Origin: Bryobacteraceae bacterium
Lineage (GTDB): Bacteria; Acidobacteriota; Terriglobia; Bryobacterales; Bryobacteraceae
Direction: 5' to 3'
DNA: 64,000 bases
Assembly: GCA_035714175.1 (NCBI GenBank)
Contig: DASTML010000106.1
Location: forward strand, 97,045-161,044
Shown here: positions 5,871 to 17,037 of the stretch, piece after piece
How positions within the stretch are numbered: the stretch's first letter is position 1
Layout of the letters: every line of letters begins with the position of its first letter
The notes under the pieces: model-generated
Database searches by the model: none
Told to the model about the DNA's origin: nothing
The model's input: the letters and a program-made list of their open reading frames with translations, nothing else
Made by a program: the position numbers and the translations under genes

Positions 5871-6323
5871 ATGACACAACTACCTAAAGGCTGGCCGCGG
5901 ATCTCGTCCGGGATCTTCTATGAAGACGCGGGTAAGGCGATTGACTGGCTGTGTGAGGCATTCGGCTTTGAGGTCCGGCTCCGCATTGAAGGGGAGGGCG
6001 GGCGAATCGAACATAGTGAACTGACGTACGGGGATGGACTGGTGATGGTGGGTACGTGCGGGCCCAAGCCAGGCCGGGAGAAAGCTCCGGCGTTTTTGAG
6101 TCCGCGAACGGCCAAAGGGAATACCCAGTCCCTGTTGGTGTTCGTCGATGATGTGGATGCGCATTGCGCGCGATCCCGGGCAGCGGGGGCAGCCATTGTG
6201 GACGAGCCCACGGTCCATGACTATGGGGAAGACTATTGGGCGGACAGGACCTACGCGGCAACGGACCTGGAAGGCCACCTGTGGTGGTTCACCCAGCGCG
6301 TGAGAGACCAGCGGGAGAGCTAG
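5871..6323 (+). CDS. VOC (glyoxalase/bleomycin-resistance/PhnB-like) family protein
   Basis: ISSGIFYEDAGKAIDWLCEAFGFEV..GRIEHSELTYGDGLVMVG..DDVDAHCARSRAAGAAIVDEP..DLEGHLWWF is the typical paired beta-alpha-beta-beta-beta VOC pattern. ATG 5871 is chosen. Confidence 0.8.
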   Translation: MTQLPKGWPRISSGIFYEDAGKAIDWLCEAFGFEVRLRIEGEGGRIEHSELTYGDGLVMVGTCGPKPGREKAPAFLSPRTAKGNTQSLLVFVDDVDAHCARSRAAGAAIVDEPTVHDYGEDYWADRTYAATDLEGHLWWFTQRVRDQRES

Positions 6324-6653
6324 ATGGTACAGGCAACGTTGACGGCTCTTGCCGATGATACCCGGCGGTCCGTGGTGGACCTGTTGCGGCACGAACCACG
6401 GCGGGCGAGCGACTTGGCGGCCGAGTTGTCGATTACGCCTCAGGCCATGAGCCGTCATTTGCGCGTGCTGCGGAAGAGCGGCGTAATCCGGGAAGAGGGG
6501 ATCGAGGAAGATGCGCGCGTGCGGATGTACCAGTTGTGTCCGGAACCGTTTCGCGAGTTGCGAGGCTGGCTGGACGAAGTGGAGTCCTATTGGGTGACAG
6601 AGTTGGATGCGTTCCGGGAGCACGTTGAGAAACGCCGGGGGAAACGCGGGTGA
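6324..6653 (+). CDS. ArsR/SmtB family transcriptional regulator
   Basis: LADDTRRSVVDLLRHEPRRASDLAAELSITPQAMSRHLRVLRKSGVI is the winged-HTH signature. Its start abuts the VOC stop. Confidence 0.9.
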   Translation: MVQATLTALADDTRRSVVDLLRHEPRRASDLAAELSITPQAMSRHLRVLRKSGVIREEGIEEDARVRMYQLCPEPFRELRGWLDEVESYWVTELDAFREHVEKRRGKRG

Positions 6654-7123
6654 CGGACCGGGTTCGGGTGAGCGTGACGGTGCCGGCGGACCCGGCGACC
6701 GCGTTTGCGCTTTTCACGGAGGAGACAGACCTCTGGTGGCGGCGCGGCCCCCGGTTTCGCGCTTCCGGGCGGACGCCGGGCGTTCTTTCTTTTTCTCCGG
6801 GCGTGGGCGGGGCATTGTCCGAGACGTTCGAAGCCGCGGACGGGCCGCGGACGGTGGTGACGGGGACAATTACGCATTGGGAGCCACCGGACCATTTTCG
6901 ATTCGAGTGGCGGGCCATCAACTTTGCGCCAGGGGAAAGCACGACCGTCGATGTCCGGTTTGAGGCAACGCAGGGCGGAACAAGGGTGACGGTGGAACAT
7001 TCGGGCTGGTCCTCACTGCGGGCCGATCATCCGGTACGACATGGCAAGGACACGGGGGCGTTTTTGCGAACGATGGGCCTGTGGTGGGGAGAGTTGCTGA
7101 CTTCGCTACGGGAGAGGGCATAG
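6650..7123 (+). CDS. SRPBCC (AHSA1/START-like) domain protein
   Basis: The GTG start overlaps the ArsR stop (GTGA, 6650-6653). VTVPADPATAFALFTEETDLWW.. and the ~155-aa length fit the ArsR-associated SRPBCC partner usually found in this operon type. Confidence 0.8.
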   Translation: MTDRVRVSVTVPADPATAFALFTEETDLWWRRGPRFRASGRTPGVLSFSPGVGGALSETFEAADGPRTVVTGTITHWEPPDHFRFEWRAINFAPGESTTVDVRFEATQGGTRVTVEHSGWSSLRADHPVRHGKDTGAFLRTMGLWWGELLTSLRERA

Positions 7124-7292
7124 CCGAGGTACCGGTTTCGAGGCGCCAGGGTATCGTAATTCCATTTCGTTCCACTACAGCCAGCATCGCCCGTTGGACG
7201 CGCGCGGGCATTCGCCCCCACCGGGCGCGTTTGGCCACATTCCGGTGGCGGGAGGGAGAGGGGTCCGGCAGACTGGGAGCAACTGTACCCCG

Positions 7293-7337
7293 CGCTCCCT
7301 GCCGAGACCCTTCCCAACAGAATCTTCGCAGGGAGCG
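7293..7337. repeat. 10-bp GC-rich inverted repeat (stem-loop) inside a 337-bp non-coding gap
   Basis: CGCTCCCTGC (7293-7302) is the exact reverse complement of GCAGGGAGCG (7328-7337), with a 25-nt loop and no T-tract after it. Confidence 0.3.
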
Positions 7338-7460
7338 TACTTCACAGCCCTCCCTCTCCATGAAGCGCGACGCTATTCGTGCCACTATTGCGTGTAGGCG
7401 CAGGCGCGGACGTATGGCTTCCCATAGCCGTGTTCGACAGGCCGGCGGGCAGGGCATAAC

Positions 7461-8585
7461 ATGAGCCAGCGATTCTGGACCATTTTCCTTCTCTGGACGC
7501 TGTACGGCGTGTTCAACACGATCGTGGTGCATTTCCGCGCCATTCTGTACGACAAGCCGATGAGTTGGCCGGAATGCGCGATGTACGAGGTTTCCTTCGC
7601 CTGGATCTGGGCCGCCGTCACGCCGGTGGTTCTCTGGCTCAGCCTACGGTTTCCGTTGGGCCGCGGACAGAGCAAACGGAATGCCCTGGTGCATGTATTG
7701 GGGGCCGTTACCATGGCCGTGTTGACGAAAACCGTGTGGGACTTCACTGCCCTGCCCTTTGTCGCGCCCTCGCTGGTGCCGGTGGATATTCCGTCGTTTC
7801 AACGCTCGGTCATCCGCGCGCTGGACTTCGGAACGCTGCACTATCTGATGGTGCTGGTGTGCCACCACGCGGTGGAGTACTACCGGAAATACGAAGACGG
7901 GCGGCTGCGCGCTTCCCAGTTGGAGGCGAAGCTGGCGACGGCGCAACTGCACGCGCTCAAAATGCAATTGCATCCTCATTTTCTGTTCAACACGCTGCAC
8001 TCGATCTCCGAACTGGTGCATGCGGATCCGGCGCGGGCCGAGTCAATGATAGTGCGGTTGAGCGACTTTCTGCGGCTGACGCTGGACCATGTGGGGATAC
8101 CGGAGGTTCCGGTGTCGGAAGAGATCGATTTTCTACGGCGGTACCTGGAGATTGAGCAGATGCGTTTTGAAGACCGGTTGACAGTGGAATGGGACATTGA
8201 TCCGGCCACGCTGGTTTCCCGCGTCCCCAACCTAATCCTGCAACCGATTGTAGAGAACGCACTGAAACATGGCATCTCCCGAAACACGACGCGCGGCGTG
8301 CTTCGCATTTCGTGCAAGCAAGAAGAGGGAAAGCTTGCCTTCACGATCTATGACAACGGACCGGGCCCGCAACGGACAGCGACGCCGGATGCCACGCCAT
8401 TGCGCGAGGGCGTGGGATTGAACAACACGCGCAGCCGGTTGGAACGGCTGTATGGGGCCGACCACCATATCGGCTTCCGGCAGGCGCCGGAGGGAGGCTT
8501 TCTGGTGAGCATACACATACCGATGCGGCGGTCGCCGGTCTATCCAGTGACGGCGGAGGCCGTGGCGACCGCCACGGGCGATTGA
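7461..8585 (+). CDS. LytS/YehU-type sensor histidine kinase
   Basis: N-terminal TM helices, then LKMQLHPHFLFNTLHSI (His_kinase/LytS signature) and an HATPase region (QPIVENALKHG..DNGPG..GVGLNNTRSRLERLYG). Confidence 0.9.
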   Translation: MSQRFWTIFLLWTLYGVFNTIVVHFRAILYDKPMSWPECAMYEVSFAWIWAAVTPVVLWLSLRFPLGRGQSKRNALVHVLGAVTMAVLTKTVWDFTALPFVAPSLVPVDIPSFQRSVIRALDFGTLHYLMVLVCHHAVEYYRKYEDGRLRASQLEAKLATAQLHALKMQLHPHFLFNTLHSISELVHADPARAESMIVRLSDFLRLTLDHVGIPEVPVSEEIDFLRRYLEIEQMRFEDRLTVEWDIDPATLVSRVPNLILQPIVENALKHGISRNTTRGVLRISCKQEEGKLAFTIYDNGPGPQRTATPDATPLREGVGLNNTRSRLERLYGADHHIGFRQAPEGGFLVSIHIPMRRSPVYPVTAEAVATATGD

Positions 8586-8602
8586 GAGCCCCACGTACAC
8601 TT

Positions 8603-9355
8603 ATGATTCGTACTGTCATCATTGACGATGAGCGCCTGGCGAGGCAACGCATTCGCCGGATGTTGGCCGAGACGGACGGATTCACGGTTGCCGCCGAATT
8701 TGAGAATCCGGAGGAGGGCCTGCGGTACCTGGAGGAGAACCAGACCGACCTTTTGTTTCTGGATGTACAGATGCCGGGGATGGATGGATTTGGCCTGCTG
8801 GAAGCGTTGGCGGCCGAACGGACTCCGACTGTGGTTTTTGTGACGGCGTACGACGAGTATGCCTTGCGGGCGTTTGAAGTCTACGCATTTGACTACCTCC
8901 TCAAACCGTTTGACCAGGCTCGTTTTGGGAAGACTCTGGAACGGGTGCGCAAGCAATTAGGGGCGGGAGACAGGAACAGCGAGCGGCTGATTCACCTATT
9001 GAACGAGTTCCGGCAGAGAAACCAGGAACCCGTGCGGTTTGCGATCAAAACGCCGGGGCGTCTGTATTTTGTGCGGCAGGACGAGATTGACTGGATGGAA
9101 GCGGCGGACAACTATGTGAATCTCCACGTGGGGACAGAGACGCATCTGATCCGGGAGACGATGAATGCGTTGGAACAACGGCTGGACTCCCACCGCTTTC
9201 TCCGGATTCACCGCTCCACGATTGTGAATGCGGACCGGATTAAGGAACTGCGCCCTTGGTTCCATGGGGAATATGTGGTGCTGCTGAAAGACGGTACCGA
9301 ACTCACGCTGAGCCGGACTTACCGCGAGAAGATCCTGGCCTTGCTGGGCAACTGA
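8603..9355 (+). CDS. LytR/AlgR (LytTR) family response regulator
   Basis: Receiver domain MIRTVIIDDE..DLLFLDVQMPGMDG.., then a LytTR DNA-binding domain (..YFVRQDEIDWMEAADNYVNLH..FLRIHRSTIVN). ATG 8603 is chosen; TTG 8582 would overlap the kinase stop. Confidence 0.9.
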   Translation: MIRTVIIDDERLARQRIRRMLAETDGFTVAAEFENPEEGLRYLEENQTDLLFLDVQMPGMDGFGLLEALAAERTPTVVFVTAYDEYALRAFEVYAFDYLLKPFDQARFGKTLERVRKQLGAGDRNSERLIHLLNEFRQRNQEPVRFAIKTPGRLYFVRQDEIDWMEAADNYVNLHVGTETHLIRETMNALEQRLDSHRFLRIHRSTIVNADRIKELRPWFHGEYVVLLKDGTELTLSRTYREKILALLGN

Positions 9356-10391: not shown

Positions 10392-10610
10392 ATGCGATAC
10401 CTCACTTCCGTTTTGCTTCTTTTCTTTGTCCTGCTTGGTCCGCTGACGCCGCAGGCGCAGGCGGCCAGCGGGAAACGGCGGGCAGCCAAGCAATCCAGCC
10501 TGCCGGAGGTGCGCAAAAAGCCGAAGTATAACCGTAAGCCAAACGTGTACAGCGCCAAGCGAAACCGTCCCCTGGTGGCGCACAAAAAGCACTGGTGGCA
10601 GAAGCGGTAG
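10392..10610 (+). CDS. putative secreted, highly basic 72-aa micro-protein
   Basis: Signal peptide MRYLTSVLLLFFVLLGPLTPQAQA with an AQA|AS cleavage site. The 48-aa mature part has 10 Lys, 7 Arg and 1 Glu by hand count. No recognisable family, and a competing antisense ORF (10289-10882) exists. Confidence 0.45.
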   Translation: MRYLTSVLLLFFVLLGPLTPQAQAASGKRRAAKQSSLPEVRKKPKYNRKPNVYSAKRNRPLVAHKKHWWQKR

Positions 10611-10649
10611 CGCCGTTCCCGGCCAGCTGCCGCGGGGAGTAGAATAGCG

Positions 10650-10673
10650 GAGGAATTTCCAGAAAAATTCCTC
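10650..10673 (+). terminator. perfect 9-bp hairpin/palindrome; either a terminator of the micro-protein gene or an operator upstream of the oxidase gene
   Basis: GAGGAATTT (10650-10658), loop CCAGAA, then AAATTCCTC (10665-10673), followed by TTATATTT. It lies 33 nt upstream of ATG 10706. Confidence 0.35.
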
Positions 10674-10705
10674 TTATATTTCATTCGATTCCGCGAGGCG
10701 AAGCC

Positions 10706-13552
10706 ATGAGCGATTCCAAGAATTCCTGCTGGAACTGTGCCGACGATCCGACGGGCAAGCTGCAACAGATGTTTGTCGATATCGTGCAAGGGGGCCGGAT
10801 TCGGGCCGGACAGTCTCCGGCCAAACGGCCGGTGTTTTTGAAACCGCATGGCGTCGCCCATGGCTGGCTGGAGATGGTACAACCACTCCCGGAAGAGTTG
10901 CAGGTGGGCGTATTCGCTTATCCAAAGCTGAACGCGTGGGTCCGCTTTTCGAGCGATACGCTGCCGAGTTCTCCCGACCTGAAGACAACCTGCGGCATCG
11001 GCATCAAACTGTTCGGCGTGCCGGGCCCGAAGCTATTGGGCGACGGCGATACGCAGGACTTCCTACTACAAAATTTCGATGTTTTTTTCGTAGATACCGC
11101 CGAGGATATGTGTGCATTTACGAAGGCGGGCGTCGTGGACGGCAACTACGATCCCTACTTGCGCACGCATCCGGTGACGAAGAAGATTCTCGACGAGATG
11201 GCGAAGATCGAAGACAGCGTTCTGACGACGACCTATTGGGGCGTGCTGCCGTATGCCTTCGGGAAGGACCGGTACGTCAAGTACAAGCTGGAGCCGGAGA
11301 CGCAGGCAGGCGTACAGCCGCCGACGCAGGACGCGAACTATCTGGCGACTGACCTGCAACGCCGGCTGGCGGCGGGCGAGGCGCGATTCCGATTCCTGGT
11401 GCAGTTCCGTACGAATCCGAAGACGATGCCGCTGGACCGCGCGACGGTACGTTGGGAAGAATCGGCGAGCCAACCGGTGCATGTGGCAACTCTGGTGTTG
11501 CCGCAACAGGATATTGCGGCACTGGGACAGGCAAGCTATGGAGAGAACCTGGCGTTCAACCCTTGGCATTGCCTACCGGAACATGAGCCGCAGGGCAGTA
11601 TTTCGGCAGCGCGCAAGGTGGTTTACGCGGCCAGCGCGGAACAACGGCGGGACGCCAATGGCGTGCCGACACGCGAACCAGGCGAGGCCAGGCCCGCGGC
11701 CGCGTTCACGCCAGTAGAAGATACATGCGTTGTGAAAGCAGCGATCTATCCGCCGATTGGCGTGTGCCGGGTGGGCAATAGCCAGGATGAGTTCTTTGTG
11801 GGCCCGGAAGTGGCCGACCCGGCTCCCCGCGGACCGGAGTTTTACCGGGACAAGAAGGGAGCGCTGAAACGGCAGGCGGCACGGTTCCGGGTGTACGGGT
11901 TGAATGCCGAGGGCAAGCCGGTGTGCGAATTGAACGCATCCAATGCGAAGGTGGACTGGACGGTGCATCTGGTGAACCAGAAGTCGTCGTGGTATCAGTT
12001 CCAACTGGCGCTGGACATTCCGGAAGCGGCTTCGGCTCCACCGACGCTGCTGCGGAATGCGACCGTTTCCGACCGGGCGGCCCTGCGCATCGACCCCGGA
12101 CCGCGGCACATACACGGCAAGAACTCCAAGGGCGGTTCCTCCCGAACGTTCGGTACCGGCAAGTTCATGGGCACGCCGGTATACCTGGGCGAACTGCGCA
12201 CGGATGAGGCAGGCCGGCTGATCGTGTTGGGCGGACGCGGCGTATCAGCGGCCTACGACGGAACGAAAGCCATCACTTTTGCAAATAATGACGGCTGGCA
12301 CGACGATACTTCCGACGGGCCGGTGACGGCGACCGTGGAATACAACGGACAAAAGCTACCCGTGGCTCCGGCGTGGGTGATCGTCGCGCCGCCGAATTAT
12401 GCGCCGCTGCAGAAATCCGTACGAACCATGTGGGACCTGATGCGGGACGTGGCAATCACGGCGAAGACTTTGCCGTGGCCGGCGCGGCCTTCGTTTACTC
12501 GCGATATTCAGCCGCTTTTCGAGCGCATGACGAACCTGCAGTGGGTGAACCAAGGGTTCGCCGCTTCGTTCGGCTGGCGGGGATGGAACAATCTTTCCAC
12601 GCCAGAAGCGCTGGCGCGACTCTCGCAGAGCGATCCGGCCGACCAGGAGTACCGGCAGACCATTGCGAACCAGTTCCGGGTGTTCGCGCGCGATTCCTGG
12701 GCAGCGCAGCCGTGGCCCTGGCTCTACGGAGACGCGATGAACATTCCGCCGGCGCAGACCCCGCGCCAACACGCGAGCCTGACCGACACGCAATTGCGCA
12801 TGCTGCAGCAGTGGGCCAAGGGCGACTTCGATACGGACTACGACCCCGCGGCGCAGCCAGTGCGCGAATTGGAACAAGTGCCGGTGTCCGGGCAACCTGA
12901 CATGTTGACGCGCGCAGCGATGGAGCATTGTCTGGCCGACGCCTTCCATCCCGGATGCGAGATGACGTGGCCGATGCGGACGGCGAGCATGTATGCCGCT
13001 CCGTTCCGGCTGCTGCATGCGGAAGCGGGATGGATAGAGCCGGGCTACGGGGCCGAGATGGGCAGCGATTCGTTGAGCCTGCCGAACGGACCGTTGGCGG
13101 GCCAAGTACCGGGCGGCATTACCCGCTGGATGGCTGTGCCCTGGCAGACGGATACGGCAAGTTGCCGGAGCGGATACCAGATATCATATGACCCGTATGT
13201 CCCAACGTTCTGGCCGGCACGCGTGCCCAACCAGGTGCTTTCCAGAGAGAACTACGACATTGTGATGGACTCCGGGCGGCCGATGGCGGAGCGGATGGAG
13301 GCTTTTGCCAACCGCGCCGATTGGGATGCGCCGCTGGGAGATAAATCGTACACGGACCAGATCAACAATATGATTCACCACTTTGGGGCAATGGGCGTGG
13401 TGGAACAACTGCCGGGGCCGGGTGACGCGGCGTTTCCGGAAACGATGCAGGTGGAACACTTGCCGGGCAACAAACCGCATCCGAAGGTGAAGACGCTAGA
13501 CGTCAGCAAGATCGACAAAGTGCGGCGTTTTGCGCGCGGCCTGCGGGAATGA
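10706..13552 (+). CDS. fusion protein: N-terminal catalase-related haem domain plus C-terminal LodA/GoxA-family cysteine-tryptophylquinone (CTQ) amino-acid oxidase
   Basis: aa ~40-320: RPVFLKPHGVAHG, AWVRFSSD, GIGIKLFGV, QDFLLQNFDVFF and ARKVVYAASAEQRR match the catalase-related pattern with distal His and proximal Tyr. aa ~341-948: AAIYPPIGVCRVGNSQDEFFVGPE (LodA N-terminal hallmark), AFHPGCEMTWP and RWMAVPWQTDTASC (LodA C-terminal region). It is one uninterrupted 948-codon ORF. Confidence 0.85.
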   Translation: MSDSKNSCWNCADDPTGKLQQMFVDIVQGGRIRAGQSPAKRPVFLKPHGVAHGWLEMVQPLPEELQVGVFAYPKLNAWVRFSSDTLPSSPDLKTTCGIGIKLFGVPGPKLLGDGDTQDFLLQNFDVFFVDTAEDMCAFTKAGVVDGNYDPYLRTHPVTKKILDEMAKIEDSVLTTTYWGVLPYAFGKDRYVKYKLEPETQAGVQPPTQDANYLATDLQRRLAAGEARFRFLVQFRTNPKTMPLDRATVRWEESASQPVHVATLVLPQQDIAALGQASYGENLAFNPWHCLPEHEPQGSISAARKVVYAASAEQRRDANGVPTREPGEARPAAAFTPVEDTCVVKAAIYPPIGVCRVGNSQDEFFVGPEVADPAPRGPEFYRDKKGALKRQAARFRVYGLNAEGKPVCELNASNAKVDWTVHLVNQKSSWYQFQLALDIPEAASAPPTLLRNATVSDRAALRIDPGPRHIHGKNSKGGSSRTFGTGKFMGTPVYLGELRTDEAGRLIVLGGRGVSAAYDGTKAITFANNDGWHDDTSDGPVTATVEYNGQKLPVAPAWVIVAPPNYAPLQKSVRTMWDLMRDVAITAKTLPWPARPSFTRDIQPLFERMTNLQWVNQGFAASFGWRGWNNLSTPEALARLSQSDPADQEYRQTIANQFRVFARDSWAAQPWPWLYGDAMNIPPAQTPRQHASLTDTQLRMLQQWAKGDFDTDYDPAAQPVRELEQVPVSGQPDMLTRAAMEHCLADAFHPGCEMTWPMRTASMYAAPFRLLHAEAGWIEPGYGAEMGSDSLSLPNGPLAGQVPGGITRWMAVPWQTDTASCRSGYQISYDPYVPTFWPARVPNQVLSRENYDIVMDSGRPMAERMEAFANRADWDAPLGDKSYTDQINNMIHHFGAMGVVEQLPGPGDAAFPETMQVEHLPGNKPHPKVKTLDVSKIDKVRRFARGLRE

Positions 13553-14577
13553 CATTGGAAGTAGACGTTCTGGTTGTTGGCGCCGGGCCGGCCGGCGCCA
13601 CGGCCGCGTTGAACCTGGCGGGGCGGCGGCGCGTGTTGTTGATTGACTATCGAACGCCAGGTGCGCGGCCGGTGGGGGAATCATTGGCTCCGGCGGCGCG
13701 GCGGTTACTGACGGACATGGGGTTGTGGGAAGAGTTCCAGGCACAGGGCCATGCGCCCTGTTATGGACACCGGTCTGTGTGGGGCGGACCGGAGGTGGTG
13801 GAGGCGGATTCGCTGCGGGATCCGGACGGACCGGGCTGGCATGTGGACCGGGAACGATTCGACGGATGGCTGCGCGATGTGGCGGCGGCGCGCGGGGCGA
13901 TGTGCCTGGCTCCGGCGCGGGTGGAGGGGTTGGAGTGGGATGGAGCGGGATGGGAGGTCCGGATACGGGGGCGGGTGGTGCGGGCGAGGGTGGTGATCGA
14001 CGCGGCGGGACGGTTTGCGCCGGTGGCGAGGCGGCTGGGAGCGAAGCGGGAGACCGATGGACGGTTGATTTGCGCATGGCAGTTGGGGCGGGCGCGGGAA
14101 GCGGAGGGGATGACGTTTGTGGAGGCGGTGCGCGACGGGTGGTGGTATTCGGCTCCCTTGCCGGAAGGCCGGCGTGTGGTGGCCTATCACACCGATCAGG
14201 ATCTGCCGCGCGACGGGGTACAGGGGCCGCATTTGGAATCGCTGTTGCGGGCGTGCGGGTTCGTGCCGGAGGGTGTGCGTCGGCTGATGGTGGCGTCCGG
14301 GGGCATGTCACGGCCATGCGCCGGGCCTGGGTGGTTCGCGGCGGGGGACGCGGCCGTGCGGTTTGACCCGTTATCGGCGCAGGGGATTTTTAATGCGCTG
14401 TATACGGGGTTGGCAGCGGCGTTGTCGGCCGATGAGTGGCTGCGCGGGGACCGGACGGCGGTCCATCGTTATTGCGCGGAGATTGAGTTCATCTTTGGGG
14501 CATATCAGGCGCATTGCCGGCAGTGGTACCGGCTGGAGCGTCGCTGGCCAGCGGCGCTTTTTTGGGCAAGGCGATAG
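13549..14577 (+). CDS. LodB/GoxB-like FAD-dependent flavoprotein (CTQ-biogenesis partner)
   Basis: The start overlaps the oxidase stop (ATGA 13549-13552). DVLVVGAGPAGATAALNLA is a Rossmann GxGxxG motif, and ..GWFAAGDAAVRFDPLSAQGI.. is the FAD-monooxygenase/halogenase-like C-terminal motif. The position immediately 3' of a lodA-like gene matches lodAB/goxAB operons. Confidence 0.8.
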   Translation: MTLEVDVLVVGAGPAGATAALNLAGRRRVLLIDYRTPGARPVGESLAPAARRLLTDMGLWEEFQAQGHAPCYGHRSVWGGPEVVEADSLRDPDGPGWHVDRERFDGWLRDVAAARGAMCLAPARVEGLEWDGAGWEVRIRGRVVRARVVIDAAGRFAPVARRLGAKRETDGRLICAWQLGRAREAEGMTFVEAVRDGWWYSAPLPEGRRVVAYHTDQDLPRDGVQGPHLESLLRACGFVPEGVRRLMVASGGMSRPCAGPGWFAAGDAAVRFDPLSAQGIFNALYTGLAAALSADEWLRGDRTAVHRYCAEIEFIFGAYQAHCRQWYRLERRWPAALFWARR

Positions 14578-14619: not shown

Positions 14620-17037
14620 ATGCTTCAGGACTTCCGCTACGCCGGGCGCATGATCCGCCAACATCCGTGGTTCTCGGCGGCTATTATCGGCACGATGGCG
14701 CTTGGGATCGGCGTGAATACGACGGTTTTCACGCTGGTTCATGCGGTGCTGTTGAAGCCGTTGCCGTTTCCGGGGGGCGAGCGGCTGACGATTGCGATGG
14801 CGGTGCAGAAGCCGCGCATCGACAACCGGCGCGGAGTGTCCTATCCGGACTTTCGGGATTTCCGGGAGCAGTCGTCCTCGTTTGAACGGCTGGAGGCGCT
14901 CTATAACTATCCGGTGAATGTGAGCGAGAAAGGCAATCCTCCGGACCGGTACCGCGCGGCGCGCATTACGCCGGGCCTGTTCCCGATGCTGCAAGTGCAA
15001 CCCGTGTTGGGACGAACCTTCCAGGCGCCGGACGGCGTGGCCGGTGCTGAGGACGTGATGCTGATCAGCTACGGCGTTTGGAAGGACCGTTACGGCAAAG
15101 ACCCGGCGGTGATCGGCCGGACGGTACGGGCGAACGAGAAGCCGGCGGTGATTGTAGGCGTGCTGCCGGAGGGGATGCACTTCCCGAACCACGAGGACAT
15201 ATGGACAAACGCGACCCCGACGCCAGAATTGGAGCGCCGGGACAACCGGGCCTTCATGCTGGTCGGCATGCGGAAACCGGGCGTAAGCATCGCCGCGGCG
15301 CAGGCGGACATGGAGCGGATTTCGCGGCAGTTGGAACAGCAGTACCCGGAATCCCACAAAGACTACACGATGACGGTGTTGACGTTCCACGATGCGATGA
15401 ACGGCGGACCGATCCGGCGGGTGTTCCTGCTGATGATGGGCGCGGTGGGGCTAGTGCTGCTGATCGCGTGCGCGAATGTGGCCAACATGCTGCTGGGCCG
15501 GGCGGTGGCGCGGCGGCGGGAGATTTCGATACGGGTGGCGCTGGGCGCAGGCCGGATGCGGATTGTGCGGCAACTGCTGCTGGAAGGTTTGTTGCTGGCC
15601 GGATTGGGCGGGTCGATTGGATTGGCGCTTTCGGTGGGCGCGGTGGATGCGTTTTCCAAGGCCGTGCAGAATGTCGGCAAGCCGTACTGGATTATTTTCG
15701 AGTTGGACTATGTGGTGGCGGGGTACTGCGCGGCGGTCTGCCTGTTTTCCAGTCTGTTATTCGGGCTGGCTCCGGCGCTGCAGGCGACGCGGGTGGATTT
15801 GAACGAATCGCTGAAAGAGGGCGCCAAGAGCTCCGGCGGCGTAAGCACGGGGTATCTTTCGGGAGCGCTGGTGGTGGTGCAGTTTACGCTGGCCGTGGTG
15901 TTGCTGATCGCGGCAGGGTTGATGATCCGGAGTTTCGTGGCGGCGGAGCAGGAATTTGCCGACATGCAGGGAGATCAGATTCTGCAGGCGGACATTAACC
16001 TGCCTGAGGAGAGGTACAAGACCGCCGATGAACGCAGGCGTTTTTTTGAGCAGTTGCTGGCGCGGCTGGCGGCGTTGCCGGGCGTGCGACAGGCGTCGAT
16101 GACGTCGGCGATTCCCGGCAGCGGGACGGGGACGGAGCGGTTCGAGATTGCGGGACAGCCGGTTCCGGAGCATGAACAGCGGCTGATTTCGAATACGGTG
16201 CTTGTGGCTCCAGGATACTTTCAGACGCTCGGAATGCCCCTGGTGCGGGGCAGGGACTTTAATACCTCCGATGGATTGACCGGCAAGGGGGCGGTGCTGG
16301 TGAGCCGCGAATGGGCGGAACGCCATTTCCCGAAGGGTGACCCGATCGGACAGCAGATTCGATTTTTCGATAACAAGAAGCAGCCGAAGGAGTGGATGAC
16401 GATCGTGGGCATTGCGCCGAACATCCGGCAATCCGTTCCAGGTAGGCCTGACTCGGGGGGGCCGGTGATCACCGTGCCGTACAACTGGTACGGGTCCCAC
16501 GGAATGAGCCTGGTGCTGCGGGCGGCGGGGAGCGCCACGGAGATGGCGGGGACGCTGCGGCGCGAGGTGCAGCAAATGGACGGAGACCTGCCGCTGTTCG
16601 ATGTCGCCAGCCTGCAAACGAACATGGTGCGCAACCGATGGCATCTGCGCGTGTTCGGCACGCTGTTTTTCTCCTTCGCGCTGATCGCGCTGGGGATGGC
16701 GGCCGTAGGTATCTATGCGGTTTTGGCGCATGCAACGGGCCAACGGACGCGGGAGATCGGCGTACGGCTGGCACTGGGCGCGGGCGCGGGGACAATCGTG
16801 CGGATGATACTCCGGCGCGGTTTGGTGCAAATCGGAATCGGCATGACGATCGGCCTGACGGCGGCCTATTTTGTCTGCCGGTTAATGGCTTCCCTATTGA
16901 TCAAGGTGTCCCCGACAGACCCGGTTACATTCTGGGCGGTTGGCCTAACACTGTTCGGGGCCGGTCTCGCGGCGTGCCTGATTCCGGCACGCCGCGCCTC
17001 CCGGCTGGATCCGTTGGAAGCCCTGCGCCACGAGTAG
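14620..17037 (+). CDS. ADOP-family duplicated MacB/FtsX-type ABC permease (no ATPase adjacent)
   Basis: N-terminus MLQDFRYAGRMIRQHPWFSAAIIGTMALGIGVNTTVF. There are two MacB_PCD/FtsX modules, each ending in a four-TM block. The C-terminus is ..PARRASRLDPLEALRHE. Confidence 0.9.
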   Translation: MLQDFRYAGRMIRQHPWFSAAIIGTMALGIGVNTTVFTLVHAVLLKPLPFPGGERLTIAMAVQKPRIDNRRGVSYPDFRDFREQSSSFERLEALYNYPVNVSEKGNPPDRYRAARITPGLFPMLQVQPVLGRTFQAPDGVAGAEDVMLISYGVWKDRYGKDPAVIGRTVRANEKPAVIVGVLPEGMHFPNHEDIWTNATPTPELERRDNRAFMLVGMRKPGVSIAAAQADMERISRQLEQQYPESHKDYTMTVLTFHDAMNGGPIRRVFLLMMGAVGLVLLIACANVANMLLGRAVARRREISIRVALGAGRMRIVRQLLLEGLLLAGLGGSIGLALSVGAVDAFSKAVQNVGKPYWIIFELDYVVAGYCAAVCLFSSLLFGLAPALQATRVDLNESLKEGAKSSGGVSTGYLSGALVVVQFTLAVVLLIAAGLMIRSFVAAEQEFADMQGDQILQADINLPEERYKTADERRRFFEQLLARLAALPGVRQASMTSAIPGSGTGTERFEIAGQPVPEHEQRLISNTVLVAPGYFQTLGMPLVRGRDFNTSDGLTGKGAVLVSREWAERHFPKGDPIGQQIRFFDNKKQPKEWMTIVGIAPNIRQSVPGRPDSGGPVITVPYNWYGSHGMSLVLRAAGSATEMAGTLRREVQQMDGDLPLFDVASLQTNMVRNRWHLRVFGTLFFSFALIALGMAAVGIYAVLAHATGQRTREIGVRLALGAGAGTIVRMILRRGLVQIGIGMTIGLTAAYFVCRLMASLLIKVSPTDPVTFWAVGLTLFGAGLAACLIPARRASRLDPLEALRHE

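Follow-up and report, generated by a model that had tools for sequence, protein, structure and literature searches.

What does a catalase-like heme domain do when it is part of the same protein as an oxidase that is expected to release hydrogen peroxide? The question is raised by a gene in a 64,000-nucleotide stretch of DNA (the window) from a Bryobacteraceae bacterium (contig DASTML010000106.1 of assembly GCA_035714175.1, positions 97,045 to 161,044 of the forward strand). The gene (10706..13552; this and all other features of the module are on the + strand) encodes a protein of 948 amino acids in which a catalase-fold domain and a linker precede an oxidase of the LodA/GoxA family, whose members carry the cofactor cysteine tryptophylquinone (CTQ). 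The next gene encodes a putative maturase for that cofactor. With moderate confidence, we propose that the heme domain serves the oxidase as an accessory, depends on it, and uses its peroxide, and that it is not a classical catalase. The main reasons are that the domain has lost the distal histidine of catalases, throughout the clade that is linked to LodA, and that it is strictly coupled to the oxidase across genomes.

A catalase-fold domain fused to a LodA/GoxA-family oxidase

The open reading frame (ORF) runs for 948 codons without an internal stop. This had been seen in an earlier reading of the DNA alone (the sequence-only reading), and the motifs which that reading quoted, including His48 (nucleotide 10847) and Tyr307 (nucleotide 11624), are all where it placed them. 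Those of the N-terminal domain are RPVFLKPHGVAHG (residues 41–53), AWVRFSSD (77–84), GIGIKLFGV (97–105), QDFLLQNFDVFF (117–128), and ARKVVYAASAEQRR (302–315); the others are CWNC (8–11), AAIYPPIGVCRVGNS (345–359), AFHPGCEMTWP (746–756), and RWMAVPWQTDTASC (807–820).

The sequence-only reading also recognized a catalase-related domain and suggested that profile hidden Markov models be used to check it. These models identified the oxidase half, but neither Pfam nor NCBIfam has a match for residues 1–340 even at E 10, and the threshold of the Pfam catalase family (PF00199) is thus not reached; some distant relatives of the domain do pass it. Because these collections are silent, we drew the kinship with catalases from a sequence search of the PDB, from hhalign, and from fold comparison. 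In phmmer, the domain matches PDB entry 3e4w (E = 4.7e-6), with ARKVVYAASAEQRR paired with FRTLVYSASVKLR. A profile of 62 sequences matches the same entry with E = 4.1e-11 and also matches coral allene oxide synthase (cAOS, E = 7e-4). The hhalign comparison with human catalase (507 amino acids) gave a probability of 83% and E = 8e-6. The AlphaFold2 model of the domain is confident (predicted local distance difference test, pLDDT, 92.6; predicted template modeling score, pTM, 0.90), and its top Foldseek matches are 3e4y and 3e4w (E = 5.5e-17, template modeling score (TM) 0.75 on the target), followed by dozens of true catalases (E around 1e-14, TMq 0.63–0.69) and by cAOS (1u5u, E = 3.7e-13). 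The catalase fold of residues 1–320 (10706..11665) is thereby established. The domain is y4iL-like and is predicted to hold a tyrosine-ligated heme.

A linker of about residues 321–343 (11666..11734), with pLDDT of 63–66 in the full-length model, joins this domain to the oxidase half (residues ~345–915, within the ~600 C-terminal residues); as described below, some relatives are split into two genes, and they break at the linker. Matches to LodA_N (PF17990, residues 348–560, 11747..12385, E = 1.4e-83) and LodA_C (PF18417, residues 683–836, 12752..13213, E = 9.7e-41, ending on the predicted cofactor tryptophan) place the C-terminal half in the LodA/GoxA family of CTQ-dependent oxidases, as the sequence-only reading had it. 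Searches of the PDB agree, whether by phmmer (glycine oxidase PlGoxA, E = 2e-40; LodA, E = 2e-38) or by Foldseek with the full-length model (pTM 0.80; PlGoxA, E = 3e-25; LodA, E = 2e-23). LodA and GoxA oxidize amines or amino acids with O2, which releases H2O2, and the formation of CTQ requires LodB or GoxB. To our knowledge, they are the only tryptophylquinone enzymes that work as oxidases. The fused protein scores 424 bits with the NCBIfam model for GoxA (equivalog cut-off 750) and 193 bits with the model for LodA (cut-off 600), so its substrate cannot be inferred.

The start of the next gene (13549..14577) overlaps the stop of the fused gene in the sequence ATGA. Its product of 342 amino acids starts with MTLEVDVLVVGAGPAG, where VLVVGAGPAG has the GxGxxG pattern of flavin adenine dinucleotide (FAD) folds. 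It matches the NCBIfam models for GoxB (219 bits), LodB (181 bits), and QhpG (160 bits), each below the equivalog cut-off, as well as FAD_binding_3 and Trp_halogenase from Pfam. By these matches it is a CTQ-maturase-type flavin monooxygenase, and the overlap, the FAD fold, and the LodB-like assignment had all been read correctly from the DNA. So had the lack of a signal peptide: the N-terminus of the fused protein (MSDSKNSCWNCADDPTGKLQQMF), read directly, shows neither a signal peptide nor a twin-arginine motif, and the protein is probably cytoplasmic.

A heme pocket without the distal histidine

Catalase and cAOS share the heme-coordinating arginines (R64, R102, and R360 in cAOS), the distal residues H67, T66, and N137, and the proximal Y353 (PMC5617202). 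In our alignments to catalase and to 3e4w, Arg41 is the counterpart of R72 of catalase and R64 of cAOS; Arg80-Phe-Ser82, of R112-F-S114 of catalase; Asn123 (11072..11074), of the distal asparagine (N148 of catalase, N137 of cAOS; the hhalign register is QN-FDVFF against NN-TPIFF); and Tyr307 (11624..11626), of the proximal tyrosine (Y358 of catalase, Y353 of cAOS). Arg303 corresponds to the arginine four residues before the tyrosine and Arg314 to the one seven residues after it (R360 of cAOS), and the resulting motif, R303-x3-Y307-x6-R314 (11612..11647), has the same spacing as Y353/R360 of cAOS. Arg41, Arg80, Arg303, Tyr307, Arg314, and Asn123 are invariant or nearly so down to ~30–37% identity. 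Both alignment and conservation thus favor Tyr307, together with Arg303 and Arg314, as the proximal site, and Tyr307 was the ligand that the sequence-only reading had chosen.

Its choice of His48 as the distal histidine did not hold up. Two independent profile alignments set R72-V-V-H75-A-K77 of catalase opposite R41-P-V-F44-L-K46, which puts Phe44 (10835..10837) at the canonical position; the mycobacterial protein in 3e4w, MAP-2744c, has R-A-L-H-A-K there. His48 (10847..10849) lies four residues past this position, opposite Ala79 in the alignment to human catalase.

To describe the wider family, we searched the representatives of clusters at 50% identity exhaustively, which gave 3351 clusters at E ≤ 1e-3, and took 95 complete domains from the result. 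Of these domains, 57 have His at position 44, 35 have Phe, and 3 have Asn. His48 is conserved across the family (88 of 95, in His44 and Phe44 types alike) and is invariant in close relatives; Tyr307 is present in 93 of the 95, and Arg303 and Arg314 in 94. All 12 of the representatives that are fused to LodA (37–62% identical to the window's domain) have Phe44, and none of the 57 His-type domains is fused to LodA. Among closer relatives, 120 fused and 61 stand-alone proteins all have Phe44. Asn123 is Asn in every Phe44-type domain displayed, is invariant in the fused relatives, and is conserved in at least 90% of the stand-alone set, whereas the same column varies (N/S/T/D) in the His44 types. 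When a neighbor-joining tree is built without the position-44 column, the 35 domains of the Phe type come out as a single pure clade. From the counts in the wider family, it appears that the ancestral motif was R-x-x-H-x-K-x-H-G and that the first histidine was replaced in the window's lineage. As judged from these alignments and the tree, the change from His to Phe became fixed when the LodA-linked clade arose and has been kept to ~36% identity.

The canonical distal histidine is the acid-base catalyst for the formation of Compound I in catalases and is essential in cAOS, and losing it abolishes catalase activity in the catalases that have been studied. Because Phe44 replaces it throughout the LodA-linked clade, classical dismutation is unlikely. 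This bears on the simplest explanation for the fusion, a self-detoxifying oxidase whose heme domain is a true small catalase that converts the H2O2 from the CTQ half to O2 and water and so protects the cytoplasm. The catalase fold, the proximal Tyr/Arg motif, and the retention of distal Asn123 would all fit this explanation, as would the fusion to an H2O2-forming enzyme, the absence of a signal peptide, and the name "catalase" that some records give to homologs. Nevertheless, we consider it unlikely. The R-x-x-H of functional catalases has Phe44 in place of the histidine in every LodA-linked domain, and the Pfam catalase model does not match even at E 10. Also, MAP-2744c, which is the closest solved relative, keeps the histidine and yet is described (PDB title) as a peroxidase-type protein and not as a catalase.

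If the catalytic histidine is lost, then perhaps the domain has no chemistry at all and serves in oligomerization, stability, or regulation (for example, by sensing heme or redox state). PlGoxA also carries an extra N-terminal domain. However, the heme-binding residues, the distal asparagine, and Phe44 are invariant across a clade that has diverged to ~36% identity. Such invariance implies selection on a functional heme pocket, and we regard a purely structural or degenerate domain as improbable.

Relatives of the domain also turn up in other settings. Proteins of the His type are fused to DyP-type peroxidases, to RoxA-like diheme cytochromes c, to a patatin phospholipase, and to an ankyrin/LsmAD protein (P0308, P0316, P0365, P0314, P0376, P0379, and P0296); in these samples the catalase-like domain acts as a module that attaches promiscuously to enzymes of redox and peroxide chemistry. 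Within the domain itself, the CWNC motif (10727–10738) is partly conserved among the fused homologs (Cys8 in 65%, Cys11 in 85%). Cys11 and Cys136 (11111–11113, in D-M-C-E/A-F-T) are each conserved in at least 90% of the stand-alone relatives and could be partners in a disulfide or in a metal site.

The heme domain is found with the oxidase

The sequence-only reading noted that a stop or frameshift near nucleotide 11700 would turn the fused gene into two, and a sequencing or assembly error that joined two genes would indeed be the most trivial explanation. This has practically no probability left. More than 120 independent full-length homologs (933–1101 amino acids, 60–76% identity) are present in metagenomes and genomes, with hosts that include Pyrinomonadaceae, Abditibacteriaceae, Myxococcaceae, Symbiobacteriaceae, Bacteroidetes, and Flavobacterium, and complete plasmids of Azospirillum and Ralstonia carry the fused gene as well. 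Scanning one genome per GTDB species turned up relatives in 472 genomes, and we inspected the best 80 of these loci by similarity to the N-terminal domain. In 71 of the 80, from many phyla, the fusion is a single ORF; of the others, 4 have adjacent but separate genes, 3 are truncated by the end of a contig, and 2 are frameshifted. Given these homologs and loci, the fusion is not an artefact. In two MAGs (metagenome-assembled genomes), one of an Acidobacteriota and one of a Solibacteraceae bacterium, the heme-domain ORF stops inside the LodA region and similarity to LodA continues past it (L024, at 7764, and L041, at 7728, both in 6001–8861); these seem to be frameshifts that reflect sequencing errors or pseudogenes.

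Not one of the best 80 loci lacks lodA, and a lodB-like gene comes next in nearly all of them. The association also holds when the heme domain is a separate protein. Searches with the N-terminal domain find stand-alone proteins of ~340 amino acids, whose genes end near residue 340. In Paraflavitalea, Rudanella, and Moorena, the stand-alone gene lies 20–35 bp upstream of a lodA-like gene for 636–645 amino acids, which is followed by a lodB-like gene. A separate heme-domain gene is also found directly upstream of lodA-like and lodB-like genes in three Flavobacterium/Bacteroidetes genomes and in a Pirellulales MAG, and a metagenome contig has a 43%-identical stand-alone gene in the same split layout. 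The distant stand-alone relatives P0300 and P0306 are on contigs too short to show their neighbors.

The converse does not hold. LodA halves that are 62, 60, 50, 48, and 46% identical to that of the window, from Bradyrhizobium barranii, Rhizobium jaguaris, Tistrella, Embleya, and Mesorhizobium, are accompanied by lodB and have no catalase-like sequence within 4 kb upstream. So, in these samples, the oxidase can do without the heme domain but not the reverse: apart from one distant and poorly resolved case (L094), no readable locus has the heme domain without the oxidase. Such one-sided dependence is what is expected if the heme domain uses a product of the oxidase.

Other lodA-like genes have different partners. 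On plasmids, the gene directly before lodA encodes a ferritin-like protein in A. brasilense (L087, 1–1276), a cupin in P. atlantica (L089, 174–1217), a tyrosinase in R. ruizarguesonis (L090, 1–553), an S53 peptidase in P. caribensis (L088, 1–1357), or a 514-amino-acid hypothetical protein with a His-rich tail in Mesorhizobium (L102, 2383–3924). The pairing of an upstream metalloprotein with a LodA-like oxidase looks like a general theme. Tyrosinase, multicopper-oxidase, and ferritin-like neighbors of other lodA groups were noted before (PMC4417212).

The cofactor of the oxidase

For the two residues that form CTQ, the sequence-only reading proposed Cys751 and Trp813, and this pair has to be replaced. 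In HMMER alignments, Asp816, Cys820, and Trp836 lie opposite Asp678, Cys682, and Trp697 of PlGoxA, and Cys751 (12956..12958) lies opposite Val586 (in FHPGVELTWP). Asp678 of PlGoxA is the aspartate that tryptophylquinone enzymes conserve beside the quinone (PMC7876137), and PDB titles ("D678A GoxA" and "H583C mutant") agree with this numbering. Cys751 is in the FHPGxE active-site loop, three residues past His748, which corresponds to His583 of PlGoxA.

We also aligned 12 diverse LodA-like sequences: the window protein, eight divergent plasmid genes (among them a gene of Martelella to which NCBI gives the name GoxA at the equivalog level), and three split lodA-like genes. Trp813, Asp816, Cys820, Trp836, and Pro841 are universal. 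The Cys751 column is Val, Ile, Met, or Gly in 9 of the 11 other sequences, including the Martelella GoxA equivalog, with Ile in one split form; together with its position opposite Val586, this rejects Cys751. Trp813 is universal but is N-terminal to Cys820, whereas in LodA, which forms CTQ from Cys516 and Trp581 (PMC4417212), the tryptophan is C-terminal to the cysteine by 65 residues. Trp813 is excluded for this reason. Trp873, at +53 from Cys820 and so near the +65 of LodA, is Ser in Xanthomonas and lies in a poorly conserved region. Trp836 is the only tryptophan C-terminal to Cys820 that is universal in the divergent proteins. Because the interval between Cys820 and Trp836 holds an insertion that varies from 0 to ~40 residues, the wider spacing in LodA is explained, and Trp836 with a LodA-specific insertion fits. 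We therefore predict that CTQ forms from Cys820 (13163–13165, within Asp816-Thr-Ala-Ser-Cys820 at 13151..13165) and Trp836 (13211..13213, in the motif F/W-W-P-A-x-x-P), where the correspondence to LodA follows from the logic of conservation and not from a pairwise alignment. These are the residues that a mutagenesis study should target.

In the full-length AlphaFold2 model, pLDDT falls below 50 at residues 745–753 and 812–842 (12938–12964 and 13139–13231). These loops, which are the best conserved of the whole sequence, hold His748 and Cys751, and Asp816, Cys820, and Trp836. Their low scores presumably arise because the crosslinked cofactor cannot be modeled.

Could the heme domain help to make the cofactor? 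It might carry out or assist the first hydroxylation of Trp836, much as the diheme enzyme MauG matures tryptophan tryptophylquinone (TTQ). In LodA, this first hydroxylation is thought to be autocatalytic and copper-dependent. The biogenesis of the tryptophylquinone of methylamine dehydrogenase (MADH) does use a heme enzyme (PMC7876137), and diverse O2-activating metalloproteins adjoin other lodA-like genes. Nevertheless, this seems very unlikely because a LodB/GoxB-type maturase is already present and because LodA halves of 60–62% identity keep the Cys, Trp, and Asp with no heme domain nearby. Also, a permanently fused domain would be an uneconomical way to bring about a single-turnover event.

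A proposed mechanism

We propose that the flavin monooxygenase encoded by the second gene (13549–14577) would convert Cys820 and Trp836 of the first gene's product into CTQ. The oxidase half would then oxidize some primary amine or amino acid with O2, to yield a carbonyl product, ammonia, and H2O2. The N-terminal domain would hold its heme by the tyrosinate of Tyr307, backed by Arg303 and Arg314, with Arg41 and Arg80 as the arginines for the heme propionates. The heme domain would capture peroxide that is made a few nanometers away and would use it up in chemistry of the peroxidase or peroxygenase type, or would remove it in some slower way. Peroxide is the obvious candidate because catalase-fold domains handle it, because it is a product common to these oxidases whatever the amine, and because the protein is apparently cytoplasmic; a source of H2O2 in the cytoplasm would benefit from local removal. 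The sequence-only reading had suggested that the heme half either destroys or uses the peroxide of the oxidase half. This is still the leading hypothesis, except that plain catalase action is now unlikely, given Phe44.

Several findings weigh against our proposal. First, with Phe44 at the canonical distal position in the window protein and in the whole LodA-linked clade, it is doubtful that the heme would react efficiently with H2O2 unless His48 or Asn123 takes the place of the histidine. Second, the fused protein scores below the equivalog cut-offs for both GoxA and LodA (424 against 750 and 193 against 600 bits). Third, a distant stand-alone domain of the Phe type (L094) has 406 bp of available sequence downstream with no lodA in it, although this case is poorly resolved.

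Alternatively, the heme domain could act on something other than peroxide. By strict analogy with the coral fusions of allene oxide synthase and lipoxygenase (AOS-LOX), the protein would be a two-step enzyme in which the heme domain transforms either a second substrate or the organic product of the oxidase (an aldehyde, imine, or keto acid), and the module would yield a specific metabolite. The genomic coupling supports this as much as it supports the use of peroxide, since one-sided dependence fits any downstream step equally, and a hydrophobic distal pocket with Phe and Asn would suggest an organic ligand over H2O2. The pairing of other lodA-like genes with tyrosinase, cupin, or ferritin-like genes is in the same spirit, and catalase-fold enzymes with biosynthetic roles exist (cAOS and cHPL, PMC5617202; EasC, PMC12003167). 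On the other hand, no extra biosynthetic genes are conserved near the module in the 80 loci. Also, we know of no chemistry of a tyrosine-ligated heme on aldehydes or imines. Overall, this strict two-step scheme seems rather doubtful.

Comparison to known systems

The sequence-only reading implied that the architecture was new, and it is not. A survey of lodA-like genes (Campillo-Brocal et al., BMC Genomics 2015; PMC4417212) lists 21 fusions to a catalase domain (its Table 3, 963–1072 amino acids), whose N-termini match pfam00199 and cd08152 (y4iL-like). All 21 are in "group III", are spread over its subgroups, and are uncharacterized. In tblastn, residues 8–947 of the window protein are 52–57% identical to genes of organisms in that table, namely Azospirillum sp. 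B510, A. lipoferum 4B, R. solanacearum Po82 and MolK2 (1000 amino acids), and R. leguminosarum; one R. solanacearum record is annotated as "catalase", and the organisms and sizes agree with the table. As these members align over the full length, the architecture was already known. AZL_e04100 (Azospirillum sp. B510, 1004 amino acids) and RSPO_m00447 (R. solanacearum Po82, 999 amino acids), for example, have the same domain order and size as the window protein, and the group III fusions likewise have an overlapping lodB-like gene downstream. What differs is the host lineage, Acidobacteriota. Thus, the window gene is a new Acidobacteriota member of an architecture that was cataloged in 2015 and is seen in hundreds of species. 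A database protein that is 100% identical to it, from a Bryobacteraceae MAG, is named [quoted passage not shown]. The claim that no example has been characterized stands as far as our literature search reached: no later paper that characterizes the architecture was found in the searchable text, which leaves out many subscription papers.

The structurally known relatives resemble the fused protein in parts. PlGoxA (Pseudoalteromonas luteoviolacea, 6byw) and LodA of M. mediterranea (3weu, 2ymw) share the LodA_N/LodA_C fold, the Asp-x3-Cys...Trp motif, the active-site histidine (His748, or His583 in PlGoxA), and an adjoining flavoprotein maturase (GoxB or LodB). Unlike them, the window protein has an extra heme domain, has no twin-arginine (Tat) or Sec signal, and scores below both equivalog cut-offs. 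MAP-2744c, a 33-kDa protein of Mycobacterium avium ssp. paratuberculosis (3e4w, 3e4y), is the best match of the N-terminal domain in both sequence and structure and shares its minimal catalase core of ~300 amino acids and its proximal R-x3-Y-x6-R motif. In contrast to the N-terminal domain, it keeps the distal histidine (R-x-x-H) and stands alone, and the identity is only ~21%.

There is an analogy in logic to the cAOS-LOX fusions of corals and cyanobacteria (1u5u, 3dy5), in which an N-terminal catalase-fold heme domain is followed by an oxygenase whose peroxide is consumed. Work from the Brash laboratory reportedly shows that small catalase-related hemoproteins, fused or adjacent to an oxygenase, consume the peroxide product of their partner. 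The analogy does not extend to the family: the partner in the window is LodA-like instead of a lipoxygenase, the peroxide in the coral system is a fatty-acid hydroperoxide, and cAOS keeps its distal His67. The coral fusion is documented in PMC5617202.

Genes around the module

The G+C content of the module (~0.61–0.65) equals that of its surroundings, and there is no sign of a foreign insert. The genes near it in the window encode a nucleoside hydrolase, a two-component system, and an ABC (ATP-binding cassette) permease. A small ORF (~10393–10611, + strand) separates the nucleoside hydrolase gene from the module. Its product of ~72 amino acids has an evident signal peptide, and the mature part is very basic (MRYLTSVLLLFFVLLGPLTPQAQAASGKRRAAKQSS...KKHWWQKR). 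An inverted repeat (10649..10674) lies upstream of the fused gene, 32 bp from its start codon. Its 10-bp arms (GGAGGAATTT...AAATTCCTCT) are perfect, it reads as GGAGGAATTT-CCAGAA-AAATTCCTCC-like, and a T-rich tract follows. It is possible that this repeat is an operator, or else a terminator of the small ORF, and it is only tentatively assigned to the module. A promoter scan found no sigma-70-like site upstream of the module, which is uninformative for an acidobacterium.

The two-component system consists of a LytS-type histidine kinase (PF06580, 7461–8585) and a LytTR response regulator (8582–9355), both on the + strand and ~1.3 kb upstream of the module. Such a pair also flanks the split modules of Paraflavitalea and Rudanella (L001, 4085–7761; L002, 13516–15440), and a LytS/YhcK-type receptor is near the fused gene of Azospirillum B510 (L004, 1–1317). 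A general link to the module is rejected, as the pair is present within 6 kb in none of the 80 loci from species genomes (tblastn, E 1e-8), and its recurrence may be chance. The same tblastn comparison found no nucleoside hydrolase, kinase, or regulator in those 80 loci. On the other side, a gene for a duplicated permease of the MacB/FtsX type (14620–17037, + strand) starts 42 bp past the lodB-like gene, and an FtsX-type match is close to the module in four further Acidobacteriota loci (L006, L007, L016, and L067). This probably reflects synteny within the lineage and not function.

Implications

Enzymes such as LodA and GoxA are of interest as antimicrobial producers of peroxide and for biosensors. 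RefSeq names the relatives of the fused protein only as "LodA/GoxA family CTQ-dependent oxidase" or as "catalase". New here are the correction of the cofactor pair, the recognition that a lost distal histidine defines the clade, the split forms, and the one-sided dependence of the heme domain on the oxidase; the 2015 survey (PMC4417212) does not mention split catalase-like genes, the loss of the distal histidine, or such dependence. The loss of the histidine, its confinement to a single clade, and the one-sided dependence turn a vague idea of self-removal of peroxide into specific and inexpensive experiments.

More tentatively, the Phe44 clade might be a new functional class of tyrosinate-heme enzyme that does without the acid-base chemistry of catalases and peroxidases and that works only with a CTQ oxidase, either by an H2O2-driven peroxygenase oxidation of the oxidase's product or of a second substrate, or by converting the product directly. 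If this is true, then the module would be a self-contained two-step pathway to some metabolite, in several hundred species from more than eight phyla.

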